Below, one piece after another: positions 2,892-12,155 of a stretch of 64,000 nucleotides of DNA. The position numbers and the translations under genes were made by a program. The notes under the pieces are model-generated. The model was not told the origin of the DNA. It ran no database searches and saw only the letters and a list, made by a program, of their open reading frames with translations. Each line of letters begins with the position of its first letter. Position 1 is the stretch's first letter. Source of the stretch: an uncultured Deferribacteres bacterium (GTDB lineage Bacteria; Zhuqueibacterota; JdFR-76; BMS3Abin05); NCBI GenBank assembly GCA_964579725.1, contig CAZOHG010000013.1:544-64543 (forward strand), in the 5' to 3' direction.

Positions 2892-5393
2892 CTAATTGCT
2901 GGTTTCGTTCAATTGTAACGCGCCCGATTTATTTTTGAGCAGATGGTACACGGTGGAAAGGCGTCCGTTGGGAAGGCTGACCAAATCGTCCCCGCGAACG
3001 ACCACGCGGTCGCCGTTTCGCTGGTAGAGAAATTCCTTTTCTTTCAGGCGCTGAAATTCCGTACGCGCTTTTTCGTCTGCCGAAAGAATGGGATAGCGGC
3101 TTCCATCCCGGTAAATCGTGATCCCTTTGAGTCCGTTTTCCCAGGCGTGCAAATAGATGTTGGAAATCACCTCCGGTTCAATTTCCTCCGGCAGATTAAC
3201 GGTTGAGGAAATGCTATGATCAATGTATTTTTGGCAGACGCTTTGAATCTGCACCCGCTTGAAGGGATCGATCTCGTGAGCCGTGCGGAAAAAATAATCC
3301 GGTAGGATTTTTCGCAACTCCTCGGTGGAATGAATGTTTTGCGCTTTTTCCGTCAGACCCTTTTGGTCGAGGTAAGCTTGAACGGTTGAGTGAAAAACAC
3401 GGAAAAATTGGTTGCCGAAGGACTCCGCCCGCCGCGTGTAGTAGAGGGCAAAAATGGGTTCCACGCCGCTGGACACCCCCACGTAGTTTTTGTCACCAAT
3501 TGTGTAACTGAGGGCGATGTTGGAAATGGTTCCTGTGGGGGCAATGGACAACAGGGCAATGTTGCGCAAACCGTTTTTCTTAATGAGAGATTTGGTTTTG
3601 GCACTGAGTACTTCGTTAAAAAAGGGATTTTTTGAGTAGCTCTTGTAATCAAAAACAGGGGAGGGGCCCTTTTCGGCGGCCAGTTCGGCGGAAGCCTGGT
3701 AGGCTTTTTCTGCAATGCGGGCCATGACCTTGCGCATTGTGTCCAGGCCGGCTTCGCTGTCGTAGGGGATGCCCATCTGGTTCAACATGTCGGCAATGCC
3801 CATGACGCCGATGCCCAGGCGGCGGGTTTCGGAAGCGGCTTTGCGTTGTTTTTCAAGGGGATTGAGCTCTTCATTCCACGTGACCACATTGTCCAAGAAA
3901 CGAACGGCGTGAGCCACGGTAGCGTCCAGACGTTTCCAGTCCAGGCGAGCTTTGCCCGTAAAACCGTCCAGAACCAGCCGCGACAAATTAATAGACCCCA
4001 AATTACAGGCGCCGCCGTCTTCCAACGGTACTTCCGCACACGGGTTCGTGGCGCTGATCGGACGCCCCACGTAATTGGAGGGTGAATATTTGGCCATTTT
4101 TGACCAAAAGATCAACCCCGGTTCAGCGGTTTTGTAATTGCTTTCCACAAAGCGATCCCAGATCATGCGTGCCTTCACAAGACGACGAATTTCTCCGGTG
4201 GGTTTGGAGGCAAAATAGAGAAGAAAATCTCCCGAATAGCGCAGGGCCAAATCAAAGGGCTCGTCTTCAAGGGGCAAAACCAAGTCGCCAAAAACGTCGC
4301 GTTGATTCACATCGTTGAGAGAAGCTTCGGTTACGGAAATACCGAAAGTCGATTCCAAAAACTTGTGCGCCTGCTCGAATGTGTCAAAAGTTTCCAGCAG
4401 CTCGTAGTCGGAAATCTCTTTCGCGGGCATGGCGATCGAATAATGGGTCACATCCTCCAGGAAGGCTTCCTTGACCAGGGTTTTATTTTTCTTTTTGTAC
4501 AGCAAAAGTTTATTTTTCCCGTAGGTGTTTTGCTCTGCCACCGCACGCATAAATTCGTCGGAAGCCTTAATGCTGATGTTGGCGAAACGAATTTGCGTGT
4601 TCTCAACCACCTGTTTTTCGATTTCCTGAAGCTGCTTTTTGTCGAATTTGTTGGACCAAGTAAGTTGCTCGATAATTTGTTGGCTGATCCAGTTGGGTTT
4701 TTTCTTCACCTGAATGAATTCCAAAATGTCGGGATGTTTAATGTCAATGGTCATCATAAGAGCACCCCGACGGCCGCTCTGTCCGATCAGCCCCGTGGTC
4801 AGCGAAAATAAATCCATAAAAGAAACGGCACCGGTTGAGCGATCCGATGCGTTGTGCACCACGGAATCTTTGGGGCGCAGAATGGAGATGTCCACACCAA
4901 TTCCGCCGCCAAATGAATACGTACGGGCACATTCGTAGGCCGAGGCGTAAATCGATTCAATATTGTCCCCTTTAATGACGGTTGCAAAACAATTGGCCAA
5001 GGTTTTGAGCCGGTACAAATCGCCGGCGCCGGCAATGACACGCCCGCCGGGAATAAAAACACCGTCGTACAGGTCCCGATAAAAATAACTGGCCCATTCT
5101 TGCTGCTTTTCCTCCGTGGGTTCTACTGCCGCAATGGCAGCCGAAATTCTGACAAAACTGTCCTCTGGCCGCGTTTCGATGAAATTCCCGTCCAAATCTT
5201 TGAGAAAATACTTCTGCTTGTAAATGCTTTTGGCCAATTCATTTCCGCTCAAATAGTCGGTTGGGTGGACCGGAATTTCACGAACGGCTTGTTTTTTCTT
5301 TAAGAATTTGTACAGGTTTGCGTAGGTCTTCAACTGACTTTCCGGCACAAGGTGGGACAGCTTTCCCTTGTAAGCAAACATGGCATTAATCAT
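2892..5393 (-). CDS. nrdJ: Adenosylcobalamin-dependent (class II) ribonucleotide reductase, large catalytic subunit (NrdJa-like)
   Basis: NPCAEVPLEDGGACNLGSINLS active-site motif (the NPCGE...CNLGSINL of class II RNRs) and an NrdJ-type N-terminal region. Start chosen at MINAMFAYKG, which is preceded by AGGAGG. Confidence 0.8.
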   Translation of the reverse strand: MINAMFAYKGKLSHLVPESQLKTYANLYKFLKKKQAVREIPVHPTDYLSGNELAKSIYKQKYFLKDLDGNFIETRPEDSFVRISAAIAAVEPTEEKQQEWASYFYRDLYDGVFIPGGRVIAGAGDLYRLKTLANCFATVIKGDNIESIYASAYECARTYSFGGGIGVDISILRPKDSVVHNASDRSTGAVSFMDLFSLTTGLIGQSGRRGALMMTIDIKHPDILEFIQVKKKPNWISQQIIEQLTWSNKFDKKQLQEIEKQVVENTQIRFANISIKASDEFMRAVAEQNTYGKNKLLLYKKKNKTLVKEAFLEDVTHYSIAMPAKEISDYELLETFDTFEQAHKFLESTFGISVTEASLNDVNQRDVFGDLVLPLEDEPFDLALRYSGDFLLYFASKPTGEIRRLVKARMIWDRFVESNYKTAEPGLIFWSKMAKYSPSNYVGRPISATNPCAEVPLEDGGACNLGSINLSRLVLDGFTGKARLDWKRLDATVAHAVRFLDNVVTWNEELNPLEKQRKAASETRRLGIGVMGIADMLNQMGIPYDSEAGLDTMRKVMARIAEKAYQASAELAAEKGPSPVFDYKSYSKNPFFNEVLSAKTKSLIKKNGLRNIALLSIAPTGTISNIALSYTIGDKNYVGVSSGVEPIFALYYTRRAESFGNQFFRVFHSTVQAYLDQKGLTEKAQNIHSTEELRKILPDYFFRTAHEIDPFKRVQIQSVCQKYIDHSISSTVNLPEEIEPEVISNIYLHAWENGLKGITIYRDGSRYPILSADEKARTEFQRLKEKEFLYQRNGDRVVVRGDDLVSLPNGRLSTVYHLLKNKSGALQLNETSN

Positions 5394-5539
5394 GACACCT
5401 CCTGTGTTGAAACTGATGTTGTGTAGAAACCCCGGAGGATTGAGTTGCATTTGCAGATGGGCTTTTCCCCAAAAAAATCCTCTCAATCGCTCCAACACCC
5501 TTCCCGCGAAGGGGCCTGAGCATCGTGCCTGGCAGGTCT

Positions 5540-5695
5540 TCTGACTCGGGGCTCGTCCTCCGAAAAGCGCCTTCCCATACGCCTGGCGTACAGTGGCTCA
5601 TGGCTTTTCTTCGTCCTCCCTTACAGCGGCGGGGCCGTTCCGGATTTGCACCGGATTCCCTTTTCATCGTGAAAGAACCAGACCGACATCTTGTA
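5540..5695 (-). promoter_or_regulatory. Cobalamin (AdoCbl) riboswitch in the 5' leader of the RNR operon
   Basis: Read on the minus strand: AAAAGGGAAUCCGGUGCAAAUCCGGAACGGCCCCGCCGCUGUAAGGGAGGACG...GCCACUG...UGGGAAGGCG. This matches the conserved GGGAA / GGUGnnAAnnCC / CnGnCCCGCnnCUGUAAnGG / B12-box GCCACUG / GGGAAGGC elements of Rfam RF00174. About 150 nt of leader with a U-run lies before the AGGAGG-ATG. Confidence 0.8.
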
Positions 5696-6024
5696 GGCGG
5701 ATAAAAATATAACAACTAAATATAGTAAAGTCAAGATATTTTTCAAAAATAATTTTCGTCGTTTTTAGTTCTGAAGAGAAATAAGAATTTAGATTTGTCT
5801 GGTTTTTTTGACAGCCCTTTCGGGTGAAAAAAAAGATCACTTTCTGCCCGAAGAATGCCTCAAAAAACACCTGTTTGGGTAACGGAAGGACGGAAAAAGT
5901 GAATTTCCAAAACAGTGAAATTGGCAAAACTGCCCCTGTTGACACATGTTTATCTAATCTAAATTTTAGGAGTGCTGAATTTGCAAGGGCAATCGAGAAG
6001 AGGAAGAACTGCCGGGAAATAAGG

Positions 6025-7224
6025 TCAGCGCTTTTCCACTTGTTTTTTAAGGAGGTGGATTTCTTTTTCCAGCGTTTGAAGTCGGGTTAGAATTTGTCGT
6101 CGATTGCCGGAGCTTAAATTTTTGGAATTTGGCCCTTGCGGGGAAAAGGCACTGTCCTGACGAAGGGCTTTTTGAAGAACTGAAAATCGCGGACGTTGCG
6201 TTAATTGAACTCTTCGGTGGATTTTCCTCCCGTTACGTAGCACACAAAGAGAAATTTCCGAACGAGGTTTTTGCTGTTTAACCAACCGGAGAAGCTGATT
6301 TAGATTGCGAACCGGCGTTCCGTTACACTCCAACAAGAGATCGCCGGGCTTAATTCCAGCACGTTGGGCGGGACTGTGGGCAAAAACGTGGGTGACCAAA
6401 AGCGTGTCCGAAACAGGGCGCCCGTGTTTGTGGGTGACCGTTACCCCGAGCCACCCCCGATTTTGGCGGCTTTCGTCGATTAAGCGCTGTACACGAGCCC
6501 GAATTTGTGCGACGGGCAACGCCAACGCTTTTCGATAGTAAAAATCGGCGTACCCGGGAAAAGCCGAGTCGGCATTTAATAGAACGCGCGCAAAAAGAAT
6601 GCCCACAATTTGTCCCTGAAAATTGAAGATCGGTGCCCCGATAATTCCGGGGGACACCTGAATTCCCACGTGCAAAAATCCGTCTTGCGTCATTCCCTGC
6701 ACCATCCCGAAAGAAACGGCTGTCGACAATCCCACCGATTTGCCAAGCGTCAACACCCAGCTTCCCACGTGGAGGGCTTCTGGAGGCGCAAACACGGGAG
6801 CAGGCAGGTTGTGTTTTTGGACGTGCAGAACAGCCAAATCAAGCAGCGGGTCGATGCCCACAAGTTCCGCGCGAAGCGAATCCCCGTTGAACAGAAGAAC
6901 GCTGATTTTGTCCGCACCTTCCACAACACTTTGTTTGGTCAAAATGTACCCGCTGGGATCGAAAATAAAACCGGAGCCGATTGTTTTGCTAATAATTTTG
7001 TGAGAAGAGGAGGATGGGGTTGCGTCAGATTGGGTTCTTTGAACCACTTCGGTTTGGGCAACAATTCCCACGCTGACCCGTTGCGCTTGCATGACCAAAT
7101 CGGTCAATTCTTTTTCAAGAAGCGGGAGAATTTGGTTGCCGCCGGCCGTACTATTGGCAACCCAGAGGAGCGAAAAAGAAATCCCCCAAAATAGCCGGAG
7201 AACGTTTCGATTTGTCTTTTTCAC
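6025..7224 (-). CDS. HtrA/DegP-family periplasmic PDZ protein, predicted catalytically inactive (pseudo-protease)
   Basis: Signal peptide; a trypsin-like fold recognisable from GSGFIFDPSGYIL...DLAVLHV; a PDZ domain (GIKPGDLLLECNGTPVRNLNQLLRLV); a C-terminal coiled-coil. However, TNNHVV is replaced by TKQSVV (His to Ser) and GNSGGP is replaced by GIIGAP (Ser to Ile). The Asp is retained. Confidence 0.65.
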   Translation of the reverse strand: MKKTNRNVLRLFWGISFSLLWVANSTAGGNQILPLLEKELTDLVMQAQRVSVGIVAQTEVVQRTQSDATPSSSSHKIISKTIGSGFIFDPSGYILTKQSVVEGADKISVLLFNGDSLRAELVGIDPLLDLAVLHVQKHNLPAPVFAPPEALHVGSWVLTLGKSVGLSTAVSFGMVQGMTQDGFLHVGIQVSPGIIGAPIFNFQGQIVGILFARVLLNADSAFPGYADFYYRKALALPVAQIRARVQRLIDESRQNRGWLGVTVTHKHGRPVSDTLLVTHVFAHSPAQRAGIKPGDLLLECNGTPVRNLNQLLRLVKQQKPRSEISLCVLRNGRKIHRRVQLTQRPRFSVLQKALRQDSAFSPQGPNSKNLSSGNRRQILTRLQTLEKEIHLLKKQVEKR

Positions 7225-7234
7225 GTGCCCGTCA

Positions 7235-7882
7235 CTAAAAGGTTACCGAAACCGTGCGTCCCAATCGCAGGGCCGGAATCGCGGCCGAGGCTGCAGAATC
7301 AGCCGAACTCAATTTGGACGAACCGGTTGCCATCCGGTGAGCGTTGAGACTGGCGGAATTTAAACCTGTCCGTGTTGCAGACGTTTCCGAAAGAGCCACT
7401 TCGTCCAAAATGTAACGAACCCGTTCCTCGACGGGGGGTGTTTGAACCGCGGATTTGGACTGCTGCGGCGACGGCAGGCTCACCAAGACGCTTTTGGAAG
7501 TCACCGGTCTCAAAGCCTGAGTGGCAGAGTGCGTTTGGAAAAACAGGTTAAACGCTAAAATAGAAACAGCCGCAAGGGAGACCAATGCCAGGCCGTAGGC
7601 GGGTGCCCGATTTCCGGAAAGCTTCAGCAGAAGGCGCTCAAAGAAATTTTCGCGTTCCAACTCCCTCCGAATCCGGCTACGGAGCACAACCTCAAAGGTA
7701 GAAGAGGTGTGAATGTGGGGCAATTCCTGCAAATGCCGTCGAACGAGCTTGACTCGCTGGAAAGTGGTTTTGCAGGTGTGACAACCCAGCAGATGTTCTT
7801 CAAATTGCTTTTTGCGTTCCCCGCTTAAAAATCCGTCCAAATAATCGGTAATGAGGGATGTAAACTGGTCGCAAGAGATCAT
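7235..7882 (-). CDS. Anti-sigma factor, zf-HC2 (ChrR/RsrA-like) N-terminal Zn-binding domain plus single TM
   Basis: MISCDQF...HLLGCHTC (H-x3-C-x2-C with an upstream Cys); one TM helix (PAYGLALVSLAAVSILAFNLFF); Ser/Thr/Ala-rich periplasmic tail. Confidence 0.7.
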   Translation of the reverse strand: MISCDQFTSLITDYLDGFLSGERKKQFEEHLLGCHTCKTTFQRVKLVRRHLQELPHIHTSSTFEVVLRSRIRRELERENFFERLLLKLSGNRAPAYGLALVSLAAVSILAFNLFFQTHSATQALRPVTSKSVLVSLPSPQQSKSAVQTPPVEERVRYILDEVALSETSATRTGLNSASLNAHRMATGSSKLSSADSAASAAIPALRLGRTVSVTF

Positions 7883-8234
7883 CCAACTCCTCCTCTGATT
7901 GTTCCAAAATGTCTATTGGTTTTATTCGTAAAAAGTAATTTTGCGGCGAATTCAAAGCAATTTGCTCCACATTATTTTTTCAAACATCGGTTCCCAGAGT
8001 AAATTTGTTGAGCCCCCTCGCCTGATTCACATTCATTTAACCCCACAAGGGGCTGAATAAGTTCCCCAAAATCTTACTCGGTGACAAAGAATAGTAAAAA
8101 AATCTCTCTTGTTGTATTAAATGCACAAAAGAACGGAAAATCTAACAATTCAACAAGCACGCTGCCAAAGAATGAAACGAAATAGTGGTCATTTGCATCA
8201 CCACATGTAATTGTTGCAATGACCCATTCAAGCG

Positions 8235-8882
8235 CTAACGATTTTTCTTGGGGTTTTTCTTCTCCATTAAAAACCCCAGTTTTTCCTGCAACCGCAACCT
8301 GGCCCGATTGACTCGCGATTTGACCGTTCCGATGGGAATTTTGACTATTTTACTGATTTCTTCGTAGGAAAGTTCCTGCACGTCCCGAAGAATAATAACC
8401 TCCCGAAATTTCGGCGAAAGATTCTGAATTTCCTTTTGAATGATTTCGTCGTACATCGTACTGTTGACTTCTTTTTCAGGGCTCAGGGTTTCGTCTGCAA
8501 TTTCGTAATCTTTGTCTTCGTAGCCGATGTCGCTAATGGAAAACAGGTTGCGTTTCTTGCGTTTGCGCAATTCCGTTTTGGCCAGATTCCCCGCAATCGT
8601 GTAAATCCACGTGGAAAATTTAGCTACTTTTCGGTAGGCGTGTTTATTTTTAAACACGCGCAAAAAGGTCTCCTGTACAATATCTTCGGATTCTGTTCGA
8701 TTGCCCAAAAATCGGTACACAAAATTTAGGAGGGGGTCTTTGTACCGCCGCACAATTTCATCGAACGCCCGCAAATCACCGTTCTGGAAGCGCTCAATCA
8801 GCACTTCGTCTTCGAGCGAACGGTAATCGACCGGATGTGAAAAATCGGTCTCTTTATTTTGGGGAAAAGAGGGATCGGTCAT
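8235..8882 (-). CDS. ECF (RpoE-like, sigma-24) RNA polymerase sigma factor
   Basis: Sigma-70 region 2 (FLRVFKNKHAYR...FSTWIYTIAGNLA) and region 4 (EVIILRDVQELSYEEISKIVKIPIGTVKSRVNRARLRL). Its ATGA start overlaps the holA stop. Confidence 0.85.
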   Translation of the reverse strand: MTDPSFPQNKETDFSHPVDYRSLEDEVLIERFQNGDLRAFDEIVRRYKDPLLNFVYRFLGNRTESEDIVQETFLRVFKNKHAYRKVAKFSTWIYTIAGNLAKTELRKRKKRNLFSISDIGYEDKDYEIADETLSPEKEVNSTMYDEIIQKEIQNLSPKFREVIILRDVQELSYEEISKIVKIPIGTVKSRVNRARLRLQEKLGFLMEKKNPKKNR

Positions 8883-9901
8883 CTTTGTTGTGTGCGAATT
8901 GTCCTTTCGTGCGTCAAATGGTACAACAGGAAATCCATGATTAGGCGTTGGTTTTGGTAGTGCGATTTTAGGTTTTGATCGGCTGCTAAAAGATAGCGAA
9001 AATTGGCCACTATTTTTGCTTCGGAATAATTTTTTGCCTGCCGAAAATATTTTTCGATGAAATAGGGCGGTGTGTGCGTCTTGGCTGCAATCTCCTTTGC
9101 CGGGAGACCTTTCGCTTGAAGCATTTTAATCCGCAACAGCTTGGTAAAATAAGACGTTAACATGGTCACAATGTAGATGGGAGATTCCCCCAATTCTAAC
9201 ATTTGCCGCACAATGGCTACGGTGCGCATGAATTTCTTCTCACCAATGGAGTCCCAGACCTCAAAAATATTAAACGCTTTTGAAACACCCACCAAGCCCT
9301 CCACGGCTGTTTCGTCGATTTCGCTTTTTTCTTTGGTAAATTGGAGCAGCTTGTCGATTTCGTTGGAAATTTCCTGCAGTGAACGGCCCGAACGGGCTAA
9401 CAGCAATTGGGTGGCTCTGGGGGTAATGCGTTTGCCTCGGTTCTGGACTTCTTCCTGAATCCACTGGAAAAGCCGTCGCTCGGTTAAAGATTTGAACTGA
9501 ACGCCAACCGCGTGCTTTAGTAAATCCTTGTGAAATTTCTTCAAATCGCTGTGGTTGGACACTAAAATAAGCGTTGTCTGCGAGGCCGGGCGTGCTGCGT
9601 ACTTGAGCAAAAGGGTTTTTCCCTCGGCAGAAAGGCGATCAATGTTTTTTACAATGACCAGGCGTTTTTGGGCCATCATGGGGATGGCCGTGGCAATTTG
9701 AATAATCCGGTCGCCGGAAACGTCTTCGCCGTACAGCAAATCCAGATTAAAATCGCGAACATTTTCAGGAATGATTTTTTCGATTGCGTGATTAAGGGCT
9801 CGTTCAATCAGGAAATACTCGTCTCCGTAAAAAAAATAAACCCTTTTTAGTTTTCCGGATTTGAGTTCCTTTTCAAATGATTGCGGAGTTAACGCCGTCA
9901 T
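8879..9901 (-). CDS. holA: DNA polymerase III delta subunit
   Basis: 340 aa with HolA-like architecture (YFFYGDEYFLIERALNHAIEKI..., C-terminal helical domain). Confidence 0.65.
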   Translation of the reverse strand: MTALTPQSFEKELKSGKLKRVYFFYGDEYFLIERALNHAIEKIIPENVRDFNLDLLYGEDVSGDRIIQIATAIPMMAQKRLVIVKNIDRLSAEGKTLLLKYAARPASQTTLILVSNHSDLKKFHKDLLKHAVGVQFKSLTERRLFQWIQEEVQNRGKRITPRATQLLLARSGRSLQEISNEIDKLLQFTKEKSEIDETAVEGLVGVSKAFNIFEVWDSIGEKKFMRTVAIVRQMLELGESPIYIVTMLTSYFTKLLRIKMLQAKGLPAKEIAAKTHTPPYFIEKYFRQAKNYSEAKIVANFRYLLAADQNLKSHYQNQRLIMDFLLYHLTHERTIRTQQR

Positions 9902-10026
9902 TCCAATTCATTCCCATGATTTGTAAAAAACGCTGATTTTGCTCTAAATGCTTTGAAAATATACGCAAAAATTGACTAAGATTCAAGTGAACTTCCCCAA
10001 GCAAAACGGCGCTGAGGGCCAAACAA

Positions 10027-10158
10027 TTAAAGCCGACTTTTCGTTGCAGGGGTTTTCTTTTTCTTTTCCTTCCGAAGGGCCCAGTACAGCGAAAAAGCAA
10101 ATCCGCCCCAGACGCCGCCCAAAATCAAAATCATGAAAACAAGGGCCCCGGTTGTCAT
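10027..10158 (-). CDS. 43-aa single-TM peptide translationally coupled to the NSS transporter (MetS-like small subunit candidate)
   Basis: MTTGALVFMILILGGVWGGFAFSLYWALRKEKKKKTPATKSRL. Its ATG overlaps the transporter TGA (ATGA). One hydrophobic helix plus a lysine-rich tail. Confidence 0.45.
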   Translation of the reverse strand: MTTGALVFMILILGGVWGGFAFSLYWALRKEKKKKTPATKSRL

Positions 10159-11624
10159 GAAGGTTCCCTTTCCAAAATCCACTTGACAAACCATTTGTTT
10201 AAACCGATGAAAATTAGAATCACCACGCCCCATTGGAAGAAACAGGTGCCCAGACTGTATGTGTGAAAGGGATTCCACCAACCTCGTGTGTCGTAGGCAG
10301 AAACAGATTGGTAGAACCACCAGATGAGCATGCCGAAAAATTCAAGGGGAATCAAATACTTGACAACCCTGTCGAACCAGCGGCCTACACGAATGTCCGA
10401 TTGGGCTGTGTTTAGCAATTCGGTTCGGAAACGACGCACCCCAAAATGAATGGCGGCGATGGAAAAGAAAAATCCGCTGAGCAGCAGTCCGATTCCCCAG
10501 GCCCAATCCTGATTGTTGAAAAATCGCAGCGAAAGGGCTGAAGGAGCTCCGAGTAAAACAGTAACCACCCAAACGATCCGAATGGCAGCCCGGCGGGAAA
10601 GCCCCATGTCCATGAAATTCCGGGTTGCCATTTCAACCATGGAAATTAACGAAGAGAGGGTGGCAAAGGTAAGCGCCAGAAAAAAGAGCGCGGCAAAAAA
10701 GGCTCCGCCCGGCATTTTGTCAAAGAGACGAGGAATCCAAATAAAGGTGAGCCCGGTATTATCGGCGTGCATGGCTTCCAATGCCGAGCTGAGGGGAAGC
10801 AGGGCAAAAACGGTGGGAATAATGGCCAAGGCCGCAAACAATGAAGCCGAATTGTTGCCCAGGCCGGTGACAAAGGAGTTCAAAACAATGTCTTCGTTTT
10901 TCTTCAGGTACACCCCGTAGGTTAGAATCAGTCCCCACCCGGCTCCCGTGGACCAGGCCGATTGTGTAAGCGCTTGCAGCCAAACACGGTAGTCCAATAA
11001 TTTGTGAAGATTGGGATTAAATAGGTAATTGAGGCCGTTTACGGCACCAGGCAAGGTTACGGCACGCACGGAAGCGATCAAAATCAGGACGAAAAGGGAG
11101 GGAATAAGCATTTTGTTCCATCGTTCGATGCCGCGTGTCACGCCCTGTTGAATAATCCAGGCTGCGGCGCTAATAGCCAGTAGGTGAAACAGCAGCGGCC
11201 AAAAAGAGTGGGTAAAATGGCTCCAGTAGGCCGCGGGATCCGGCGCAATGGCGGTGTGAAAAAGCGAACGAAAAAAATAGTGCAGGCTCCAGCCGGTGAC
11301 CACGGAATAATAGAATAGAATGCCCATGGTGCAAAAACCGACAAAAGCCCCCATCCAGGCGTACTTTTTCCCGAGGAAATGACCAAATGCGCCGATCGTC
11401 CCCAAGTGAGTTTTTTGGCCCATGGCAAATTCCACCATAATAAGGGGAATGGACCAGAGGAAGAGAAAAATGATCCAAGGAATGAGAAAGGCACTACCGC
11501 CGTTTTGAGCCACCATTCGCGGAAAGCGCCAAATATTCCCGGCTCCGACAGCCATCCCCATGGCGGCCAAAATAAGTCCGAGGCGCGAAGAAAATTCCTC
11601 TCGTTTTGTAGTATCGGTTGGCAT
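10155..11624 (-). CDS. Neurotransmitter:sodium symporter (NSS/SNF) family transporter
   Basis: Signature AMGMAVGAGNIWRFP near the N-terminus; about 12 predicted TM helices. Confidence 0.85.
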   Translation of the reverse strand: MPTDTTKREEFSSRLGLILAAMGMAVGAGNIWRFPRMVAQNGGSAFLIPWIIFLFLWSIPLIMVEFAMGQKTHLGTIGAFGHFLGKKYAWMGAFVGFCTMGILFYYSVVTGWSLHYFFRSLFHTAIAPDPAAYWSHFTHSFWPLLFHLLAISAAAWIIQQGVTRGIERWNKMLIPSLFVLILIASVRAVTLPGAVNGLNYLFNPNLHKLLDYRVWLQALTQSAWSTGAGWGLILTYGVYLKKNEDIVLNSFVTGLGNNSASLFAALAIIPTVFALLPLSSALEAMHADNTGLTFIWIPRLFDKMPGGAFFAALFFLALTFATLSSLISMVEMATRNFMDMGLSRRAAIRIVWVVTVLLGAPSALSLRFFNNQDWAWGIGLLLSGFFFSIAAIHFGVRRFRTELLNTAQSDIRVGRWFDRVVKYLIPLEFFGMLIWWFYQSVSAYDTRGWWNPFHTYSLGTCFFQWGVVILIFIGLNKWFVKWILEREPS

Positions 11625-11874: not shown

Positions 11875-11958
11875 GCCGAAGTGGCGGAACTGGTAGACGC
11901 GCTACGTTCAGGGCGTAGTGTCCGCACGGGCGTGGGGGTTCGAATCCCCCCTTCGGCA
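11875..11958 (+). tRNA. tRNA-Leu (anticodon CAG)
   Basis: GCCGAAG acceptor stem pairing with CTTCGGC; anticodon stem CTACG/CGTAG with loop TTCAGGG; long type-II variable arm; GGGGG-TTCGAAT-CCCCC T-arm; discriminator A. TTGACT-17-TAAATT promoter about 35 nt upstream. Confidence 0.9.
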
Positions 11959-12155
11959 CTTTTTTCCTCTTCCGACTTTCTGGCCGAAAATTTTCCACCA
12001 AAAGGAATAAATGACCCCAAACTGGGAAAAATTTGCCCAGTTTCTGCCTCCCCGTGTGGTATTTTGCCCCGCCCCGCCGCTACCACTAACTGTAATCACT
12101 TGTTTTTCCGAAAAATGAGCGAAAAAAAATACCCTCTTTGTTCCGAAAATGATTT

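Follow-up and report, generated by a model that had tools for sequence, protein, structure and literature searches.

A sequence-only reading of contig CAZOHG010000013.1 (assembly GCA_964579725.1), from an uncultured Deferribacteres bacterium, had picked out four minus-strand genes encoding the DNA polymerase III delta subunit (holA), a sigma factor of the extracytoplasmic function (ECF) type, a zf-HC2 anti-sigma factor and an HtrA-like protein without its catalytic His and Ser, and raised the question of what a protease fold that cannot cut would do beside a membrane anti-sigma factor. Here the 64,000-nucleotide stretch of that contig analysed as a whole is called the window, and the last of the four proteins the pseudo-HtrA. 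The list of open reading frames (ORFs) and the Pfam and TIGR scores place all four genes where that reading had put them, and in the families it had named (Table 1). We think it somewhat probable that the pseudo-HtrA is a dedicated, non-proteolytic regulator of the adjacent membrane anti-sigma factor, acting through its PDZ domain, because of its lost triad, purifying selection on its gene, strict synteny, the aromatic tails of the linked anti-sigma factors, a conserved PDZ loop and an anti-sigma periplasmic region predicted to be disordered.

All of the motifs quoted in the sequence-only reading are present in the protein: GSGFIF (residues 83-88), GYIL (92-95), TKQSV (96-100), DLAVL (129-133), GIIGAP (193-198) and, in the PDZ domain, GIKPGDLL (290-297). 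Catalytic columns were assigned by three independent alignment methods, namely HMMER against solved DegP-like and MucD chains, MAFFT, and hmmalign. The HMMER residue alignment sets GYILTKQSVV on GYILTNNHVV and SPGIIGAP on NPGNSGGP, and the MAFFT and hmmalign alignments with intact HtrAs return the same assignment, with Ser99 in place of the catalytic His, the catalytic Asp retained as Asp129 and Ile195 in place of the nucleophilic Ser. The 67-sequence alignment of the wider pseudo-HtrA family shows no conserved His or Ser elsewhere, so the triad has not been displaced to another part of the protein, the outcome against which the proposed loss had to be checked. The protein lacks the His-Asp-Ser triad of an HtrA peptidase; judged on its sequence, the canonical Ser-His-Asp mechanism is impossible, and no proteolytic activity is predicted, as the sequence-only reading had held.

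The fold itself is intact. With a chymotrypsin-fold protease domain and one PDZ domain the protein has the domain make-up of an HtrA, and its AlphaFold model (mean predicted local distance difference test score, pLDDT, 88.6) returned DegQ, AlgW, DegP, MucD and DegS as the top Foldseek matches in the PDB (E ~1e-25), while the curated HtrA cutoffs are not reached (TIGR02037, 160.9 against 416.2; DegS TIGR02038, 122.1 against 422.95; HhoA/HhoB/HtrA, 128.6 against 450). The protein would be exported to the periplasm, its signal-like N-terminal segment being cleaved off. At the other end lies an amphipathic helix whose motif, L-x-x-R-[IL]-x-x-L-E-x-E-[IV]-x-x-L-[KR], marks the family; E386 and L392 in it each reach 90% conservation or more across the 67 sequences. 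This tail may form a parallel coiled coil, with L382, L385, I389, L392 and V396 at its a/d positions and the conserved R381 and E386 as a g-e' pair, and the pseudo-HtrA probably oligomerises, as a trimer, through the HtrA core and the coiled coil together.

A profile was searched against 1.84 billion cluster representatives. The 268 proteins collected, all aligned with hmmalign, fell into 77 with the C-terminal tail helix (60 clusters at 50% identity) and 191 without it. The triad was intact in none of the tail-bearing proteins, as against 162 of the tail-less ones, and the helix was absent from all of these 162. A second search gave at least 410 bits for family members and at most 305 for active HtrAs, marking out a discrete clade; the window protein scores 440 bits on the family profile. 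Among the 77 members the His position has become Ser in 58 and is still His in 2, whilst the Asp position is held by Gly in 40 and by Asp in 15, and the nucleophile position by Asn (19), Ser (19), Ile (17), Ala (9), Val (5) or Thr (4). The triad is missing from family members down to ~25% identity, and at 46-98% identity TK[QKN]S and G[IS]IGAP are found in every one of the 13 relatives.

Nonsynonymous and synonymous divergence (pN and pS) from the 76%-identical orthologue in L096 (such numbers label the metagenome and genome loci compared) are 0.16 and 0.76, the latter saturated, so the pseudo-HtrA gene is under purifying selection; in the same comparison the values were 0.07 and 0.59 for the sigma gene and 0.10 and 0.71 for holA. 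Near-identical copies lie on several independently assembled contigs, with pseudo-HtrAs 98% identical and anti-sigma, sigma and holA sequences identical. A scan of a genome collection gave only three true relatives, and family members carry no source names other than Calditrichota and candidate division KSB1. The tail-bearing pseudo-HtrAs are a conserved pseudoenzyme family, and the strain-specific decay that the sequence-only reading had allowed for, should related genomes carry intact triads, does not apply. We define the family as proteins of ~400 amino acids (aa) with a signal peptide, a triad-less trypsin fold, one PDZ domain and a C-terminal L-x2-R-x3-L-E-x-E-x3-L helix, encoded directly 3' of the gene for an anti-sigma factor with a C-terminal Phe or Tyr. 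The window protein has every one of these features.

The partnership with the anti-sigma gene is as constant as the loss of the triad. The pseudo-HtrA gene follows closely 3' of the anti-sigma gene, from an overlap to a gap of 88 nt, in 18 of 18 loci in which both are visible, and this adjacency extends from the window's clade (L001, L004-6, L096) to other loci (L002, L003, L011-L016, L032, L033, L097, L098). In the window 10 nt separate the anti-sigma stop from the GTG start of the pseudo-HtrA gene. Where upstream sequence exists the order is nearly always SNF transporter, small subunit, holA, sigma, anti-sigma and pseudo-HtrA; in L012 and L033 holA is missing and the three-gene core stands by itself. 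The sigma factor is 61-85% identical to its orthologues in eight loci and 42% identical to the sigma of holA-less L012; for the same loci anti-sigma identity is 18-50% and pseudo-HtrA identity 25-50%. Conservation of the sigma factor so far above that of its partners suggests that it is a core, and perhaps essential, regulator of these phyla.

The second line of evidence comes from the anti-sigma factor. Its N-terminal domain is of the class I zf-HC2 type (H-x3-C-x2-C followed by one transmembrane helix), with H30, C34 and C37 conserved in 10 of 11 lineages. The AlphaFold model is confident for the N-terminal helices and the transmembrane segment and falls below pLDDT 50 over residues 116-215, from a shallow alignment; the ~100-aa periplasmic region is predicted to be disordered. 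Periplasmic regions of orthologous anti-sigma factors are nearly unalignable except for an RxYxLD motif. All 13 pseudo-HtrA-linked anti-sigma factors end in an aromatic residue, Phe in nine and Tyr in four, with Val, Ile, Thr or Phe usually at position -2 (tails VTF, VIF, INF, TSF, VRF, RSY, FSF, VTF, VSF, VSF, TIY, VVF and IVY/VTY). A sigma-seeded metagenome scan recovered related loci without a pseudo-HtrA, and among 30 complete anti-sigma-like ORFs beside such sigma genes none ends in Phe, Tyr or Trp (13/13 against 0/30, Fisher exact p = 2.7e-11 with kinship ignored).

Two variants were seen. The L013 protein (4384-4974 of that locus) has lost the zinc ligands (VLRSNPHYEH) and has no zf-HC2 Pfam match, and keeps the transmembrane helix, a tail ending in PFSF and its pseudo-HtrA partner. 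L020, L021, L022 and L025 carry holA, sigma and anti-sigma genes without a pseudo-HtrA; their anti-sigma factors end in KRP, NKR or VND, and a protein with a hydrophobic N-terminus (562 aa in L021) follows, which may be an alternative partner of the same sigma orthogroup.

The PDZ domain appears equipped to receive such a tail. Its RGWLG motif is invariant across a 23-sequence alignment, active HtrAs included, and the active HtrA homologue labelled P0020 has an identical RGWLGV; over the 67 sequences G260 never varies and W258 reaches 90% conservation or more. We take RGWLGV to correspond to RGYIGI of DegS, and the sequence predicts a carboxylate-binding loop for C-terminal peptides. A hydrophobic-x-Phe carboxyl terminus is the ligand class of DegS and AlgW PDZ domains, which take C-terminal Y/W-x-F peptides. 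Complexes with bound peptide (3gcn, 3gdv, 6ew9 and 7co5, with ligands including YQF, YRF and a decapeptide) are among the Foldseek matches, and binding of C-terminal Y/W-x-F peptides by DegS and AlgW is described in PMC8545111. The sequence-only reading had the PDZ domain bind a periplasmic signal and gate the anti-sigma factor without cleaving it. A non-cleaving partner is strengthened by the synteny and the tails, whilst the likeliest ligand is now the C-terminus of the anti-sigma factor itself and not an external signal alone, and the gating is carried forward as a model.

The closest parallels are DegS-RseA-sigmaE in E. coli and AlgW-MucA-AlgU in P. aeruginosa, which likewise combine a periplasmic HtrA with one PDZ domain, a single-pass anti-sigma factor and an RpoE-like ECF sigma factor, and share the conserved PDZ loop and, as predicted here, a hydrophobic-x-Phe C-terminal ligand. 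DegS and AlgW, unlike the pseudo-HtrA, have protease activity and cleave their anti-sigma factor after tails of outer-membrane proteins (OMPs) or MucE bind the PDZ domain. Here it is the anti-sigma factor that bears the Phe tail, its anti-sigma domain is zf-HC2 and not RseA_N, and the pseudo-HtrA has an additional putative coiled-coil tail and is encoded within the sigma locus. In E. coli degS is unlinked to rpoE; of the three positional parallels that had been suggested (MucD, DegS and RseB), those with MucD and RseB stand and that with DegS does not.

RseB and MucB bind the periplasmic domain of the anti-sigma factor, gate site-1 cleavage and thereby protect RseA and MucA. We propose them as functional analogues, being non-enzymatic periplasmic proteins encoded directly after the anti-sigma gene, as in the RseA-RseB-RseC gene context (PMC7826278). 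Their fold is unrelated to the trypsin fold and PDZ of the pseudo-HtrA, and no ORF of the module matched MucB_RseB in Pfam or NCBIfam. MucD resembles the pseudo-HtrA in being an HtrA homologue that ends an ECF sigma/anti-sigma cluster (algU-mucABCD), and its structure 8k2y is among the top sequence and structure matches; it differs as a catalytically active quality-control protease of DegP type without a coiled-coil tail. HtrA or trypsin-fold domains repurposed after loss of catalysis are known from magnetosome MamO (PMC4794232), which binds metal in biomineralisation, and from plant DEG7 (PMC3194040), whose degenerate second protease domain serves in oligomerisation. Neither has a link to a sigma/anti-sigma pair, and the MamO NCBIfam model scores a weak 21 bits on the pseudo-HtrA. 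Literature searches found neither an HtrA pseudoprotease dedicated to an ECF anti-sigma factor nor an anti-sigma factor with a PDZ-ligand tail, which is not proof of novelty, and the main text of the ECF reclassification paper mentions no trypsin, PDZ, HtrA or DNA polymerase III.

In the regulatory model that we favour, the anti-sigma factor would hold the sigma factor through its cytoplasmic zf-HC2 domain and extend into the periplasm a disordered tail of ~100 aa ending in Val-Thr-Phe-COOH. The pseudo-HtrA, probably a trimer joined by the protease-like core and the C-terminal coiled coil, would bind this C-terminus with its PDZ domain much as the PDZ domains of DegS and AlgW bind the Tyr-x-Phe tails of unassembled OMPs, and would cap or shield the anti-sigma factor uncut, as RseB and MucB do. 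Envelope stress would lift the cap, through competing hydrophobic-x-Phe C-termini or through unfolded proteins on the dead protease body, and the uncapped anti-sigma factor would be open to genuine site-1 and site-2 proteases of regulated intramembrane proteolysis, freeing the sigma factor. The sigma factor would be made constitutively with holA from a housekeeping unit, and an ECF-type promoter of the anti-sigma/pseudo-HtrA pair would make production of its inhibitors depend on the sigma factor and so supply negative feedback. The physical binding of PDZ domain and tail, the protective role, the competing signal and the function of the promoter are what we infer from these observations.

A narrower version is tentative and, in our judgement, rather doubtful: an 'inverted DegS' in which, at rest, a dead HtrA trimerised by its coiled coil would grip with its PDZ domain the anti-sigma factor's own OMP-like C-terminal degron or ligand. 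Envelope stress would be sensed when C-termini of unassembled OMPs displace this tail competitively, with no protease allosterically activated. It would amount to an undescribed control of a core RpoE-like sigma factor, hard-wired to holA, in Calditrichota, KSB1 and allied uncultured phyla of the FCB group, a possibility that we hold no more firmly.

Several observations weigh against a PDZ-mediated regulator or against parts of the model. The comparison of 13 linked with 30 unlinked anti-sigma factors ignores phylogeny, and the unlinked ORFs include distant ECF systems. Competing OMP tails of the hydrophobic-x-Phe type are assumed by analogy to be present in these organisms; among the OMP tails examined in the window and the loci, the only OMP gene beside a family member (L011) encodes a protein ending in KLK and not in Phe, and an OMP-like ORF in L024 ends in YSF. 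The nucleophilic Ser is kept in 19 of 77 family members and the His in 2 of 77, so that residual or altered activity is possible in some branches. The promoter motif matches once in the window, equal to chance expectation, so its weight rests on conservation, and its spacer is N19 in the window's clade against N17 elsewhere.

Among the other explanations, the one that fares best, which we nevertheless regard as unlikely, makes the pseudo-HtrA a chaperone-only (holdase) HtrA, an output of the sigma regulon for misfolded envelope proteins whose place beside the anti-sigma gene reflects co-expression only. Its HtrA fold and PDZ domain are intact, and the conserved ECF-type promoter motif stands upstream of its gene; protease-dead DegP S210A retains chaperone action, and MucD and DegP are quality-control factors linked to AlgU and sigma-E. 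A holdase would nonetheless leave unexplained why an aromatic anti-sigma tail occurs only together with a pseudo-HtrA and why the adjacency survives divergence to ~25% identity, and the protein has a single PDZ domain, without the second one of the cage-forming DegP and DegQ.

Improbable too is an adaptor of opposite sign, with a PDZ domain that captures the anti-sigma tail and passes it to an active HtrA paralogue in mixed trimers, or to a tail-specific protease, and so promotes site-1 cleavage. The same synteny and C-terminus evidence fits this reading, HtrAs are obligate trimers, and a degenerate protease domain is an oligomerisation module in plant DEG7 (PMC3194040). An active HtrA is, however, encoded neither in the window nor beside the module in most loci, and the family-specific coiled-coil tail would point to homo-oligomers.

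We give very little credence to a non-canonical enzyme in which Ser at the old His position and a neighbouring Lys or Arg, present in many members (T-K-x-S), would make a new catalytic centre. The frequency of Ser at that position (58/77) and the invariance of T96, K97 and S99 in the Calditrichota-like clade are in its favour, but K97 varies over the family (K, R, T, S, H or L), the 67 sequences share no further residue that could act as base or nucleophile, and the oxyanion-hole and nucleophile motif is degraded in most members. Decay, assembly error or misalignment of an ordinary HtrA, for which no point in favour was found, is refuted by the conserved substitutions, the independent contigs, purifying selection and the agreement of the three alignments.

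The sequence-only reading had taken the four genes to be a single operon. Gene order is strictly conserved, and the ATGA overlap of the holA stop and sigma start is present (junction AGATGACC). The sigma and anti-sigma genes, by contrast, are separated by a 352-bp gap, with no ORF of at least 60 aa in it, that carries a conserved ECF-type promoter motif, and the four genes are therefore probably not one operon. The corresponding gap is 199-219 bp in relatives at ~50% identity and 1.2 kb in L096, where a CopG-antitoxin-like gene (4468-4749 of that locus) is inserted. This insertion suggests that the gap tolerates added sequence and that the genes on its two sides are transcribed separately.

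Five loci with proteins ~50% identical share the TGGAAC and GTTAAA blocks of the motif without any change, in an intergenic alignment that is otherwise ~52% identical and mostly unconserved. In L096 the motif stays ~220 nt upstream of the anti-sigma gene despite the insertion, and in L011, L012, L013, L015 and L097 a GGAAC-N17/18-GT[TA]NAA form lies just 5' of the sigma gene, within the holA-sigma gap where holA is present. Read from these sequences, the motif looks like an autoregulatory ECF promoter that in the window's clade now stands before the anti-sigma/pseudo-HtrA pair, with holA-sigma and anti-sigma/pseudo-HtrA probably forming two transcription units. A strong Shine-Dalgarno sequence (AGGAGGAG) precedes the anti-sigma start and is invariant in relatives. 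The leader from motif to start measures ~155 nt in the window and 116-220 nt in relatives, and it holds a small invariant CGA block (consensus CCGAT). Hairpins after the sigma gene (8150-8236; z = 0.38) and after the pseudo-HtrA gene (5940-6040; z = 0.31) show no gain in folding over shuffled sequence, and a consensus terminator scan gave background level.

Table 1. Genes, domains, residues and candidate signals in and around the sigma/anti-sigma/pseudo-HtrA locus (window positions; TM, transmembrane; RNR, ribonucleotide reductase)
Feature	Position	Strand	Details and basis
tRNA-Leu (anticodon CAG)	11875-11959	+	
SNF-family sodium symporter	10155-11624	-	
MaAIMP_sms-like small subunit	10027-10158	-	43 aa
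Candidate sigma-70-like promoter of holA-sigma unit	9958-9986	-	TTGAAT-17-TATATT, 5' of holA; consensus scan alone, 9/12 positions; weak
holA, DNA polymerase III delta subunit	8879-9901	-	340 aa; Pfam DNA_pol3_delta and DNA_pol3_delta_C
ECF (group 4) sigma factor, RpoE/SigW type	8235-8882	-	215 aa; Sigma70_r2, Sigma70_r4_2, Sigma70_ECF
Sigma/anti-sigma intergenic region	7883-8234	-	352 bp
ECF-type promoter-like motif	8037-8065	-	GGAAC-N19-GTTAA(A), in sigma/anti-sigma gap; conserved
Leader, promoter-like motif to anti-sigma start	7883-8036	-	
zf-HC2 anti-sigma factor, single-pass	7235-7882	-	215 aa; PF13490, 36.5 bits against cutoff 22.2
Zinc ligands H30-x3-C34-x2-C37	7772-7795	-	codons; N-terminal anti-sigma domain
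Anti-sigma TM helix	7538-7603	-	residues ~94-115, hydropathy; 95-118 in AlphaFold model
RxYxLD motif	7397-7423	-	extracytoplasmic region; alignment
Anti-sigma C-terminal tail RTVSVTF-COOH	7238-7258	-	hydrophobic-x-Phe, proposed PDZ ligand
Pseudo-HtrA	6025-7224	-	399 aa; Trypsin_2 (78 bits, 1.2e-21), PDZ_2 (1.8e-11)
Signal peptide or anchor of pseudo-HtrA	7144-7224	-	residues 1-27; n-h-c signal-like segment, modelled as helix
Trypsin-fold domain	6598-6978	-	residues 83-209; Pfam Trypsin_2
Ser99, catalytic His position	6928-6930	-	codon, TNNH to TKQS; alignments with solved and intact HtrAs
Asp129, catalytic Asp position	6838-6840	-	codon, retained (DLAVL); alignments
Ile195, nucleophilic Ser position	6640-6642	-	codon, GNSGGP to GIIGAP; alignments
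PDZ domain, single	6205-6477	-	residues 250-340; Pfam PDZ
PDZ carboxylate-binding loop R256-G-W-L-G-V261	6442-6459	-	conserved
C-terminal amphipathic helix	6028-6123	-	residues 368-398, heptad pattern; pLDDT ~91-93 in model
Cobalamin riboswitch (RF00174), full-length	5514-5696	-	120 bits, E 1.5e-29
RNR large-subunit-like gene	2892-5498	-	868 aa; Ribonuc_red_lgC, 352 bits

The identities of the two upstream genes are clear. The holA product scores 263.3 bits on the TIGR01128 equivalog model (cutoff 80). The sigma factor scores 109.3 bits on TIGR02937 (cutoff 42.9) and has sigma-2 and sigma-4 domains only, as group 4 sigma factors do; it reaches no equivalog cutoff among the SigW and RpoE models tested (SigW PRK09641, 160 against 209). 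The pairing of a clamp-loader subunit with a stress sigma factor, which had been called unusual, proves to be common. The holA gene lies 5' of the orthologous sigma gene in L001, L002, L004-6, L011, L013-16, L096 and L097, and also in the pseudo-HtrA-less loci L017-26 and L038; the order holA, sigma, anti-sigma without a pseudo-HtrA is found in L017, L020-L025 and others, and in L034, L035 and L039 holA is placed after the anti-sigma gene. The holA-sigma linkage is an old and widespread trait of these lineages and not peculiar to one genome.

The surroundings of the module are partly conserved as well. The sodium symporter gene and its small subunit directly upstream of holA precede it in most orthologous loci (L001, L004-6, L011, L013, L014, L096 and L097), so that synteny extends past the four genes; beyond the transporter gene, on the opposite strand, lies a tRNA-Leu gene. 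Shortly 3' of the module in L001, L002, L011, L097 and L098, often after an ORF of 64-68 aa, is a gene for a Ham1/RdgB-like non-canonical NTP pyrophosphatase, a second neighbour besides holA related to nucleotides or replication. In the window this position is held by a cobalamin riboswitch and the ribonucleotide reductase large-subunit-like gene in whose leader it lies, directly downstream of the pseudo-HtrA gene, and in L096 a ribonucleotide reductase gene likewise lies 3' of the pseudo-HtrA gene.

Control of ECF anti-sigma factors by the HtrA proteins DegS and AlgW is the textbook case of regulated proteolysis in envelope stress, and in the family described here the same scaffold has become a pseudoenzyme throughout. 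The public-record labels 'serine protease' and 'serine protease Do' for these proteins are misleading. The pseudo-HtrA has stayed tied to the anti-sigma factor, which has in turn gained a tail of the PDZ-ligand type, and if the proposed binding is true a protease-based sensor would have evolved into a binding-based one. A case from bacterial signalling would then join the few HtrA pseudoproteases, MamO among them, that have been put to a new use. Ultimately, the module would offer a first way into envelope-stress regulation in little-studied phyla (Calditrichota, KSB1).

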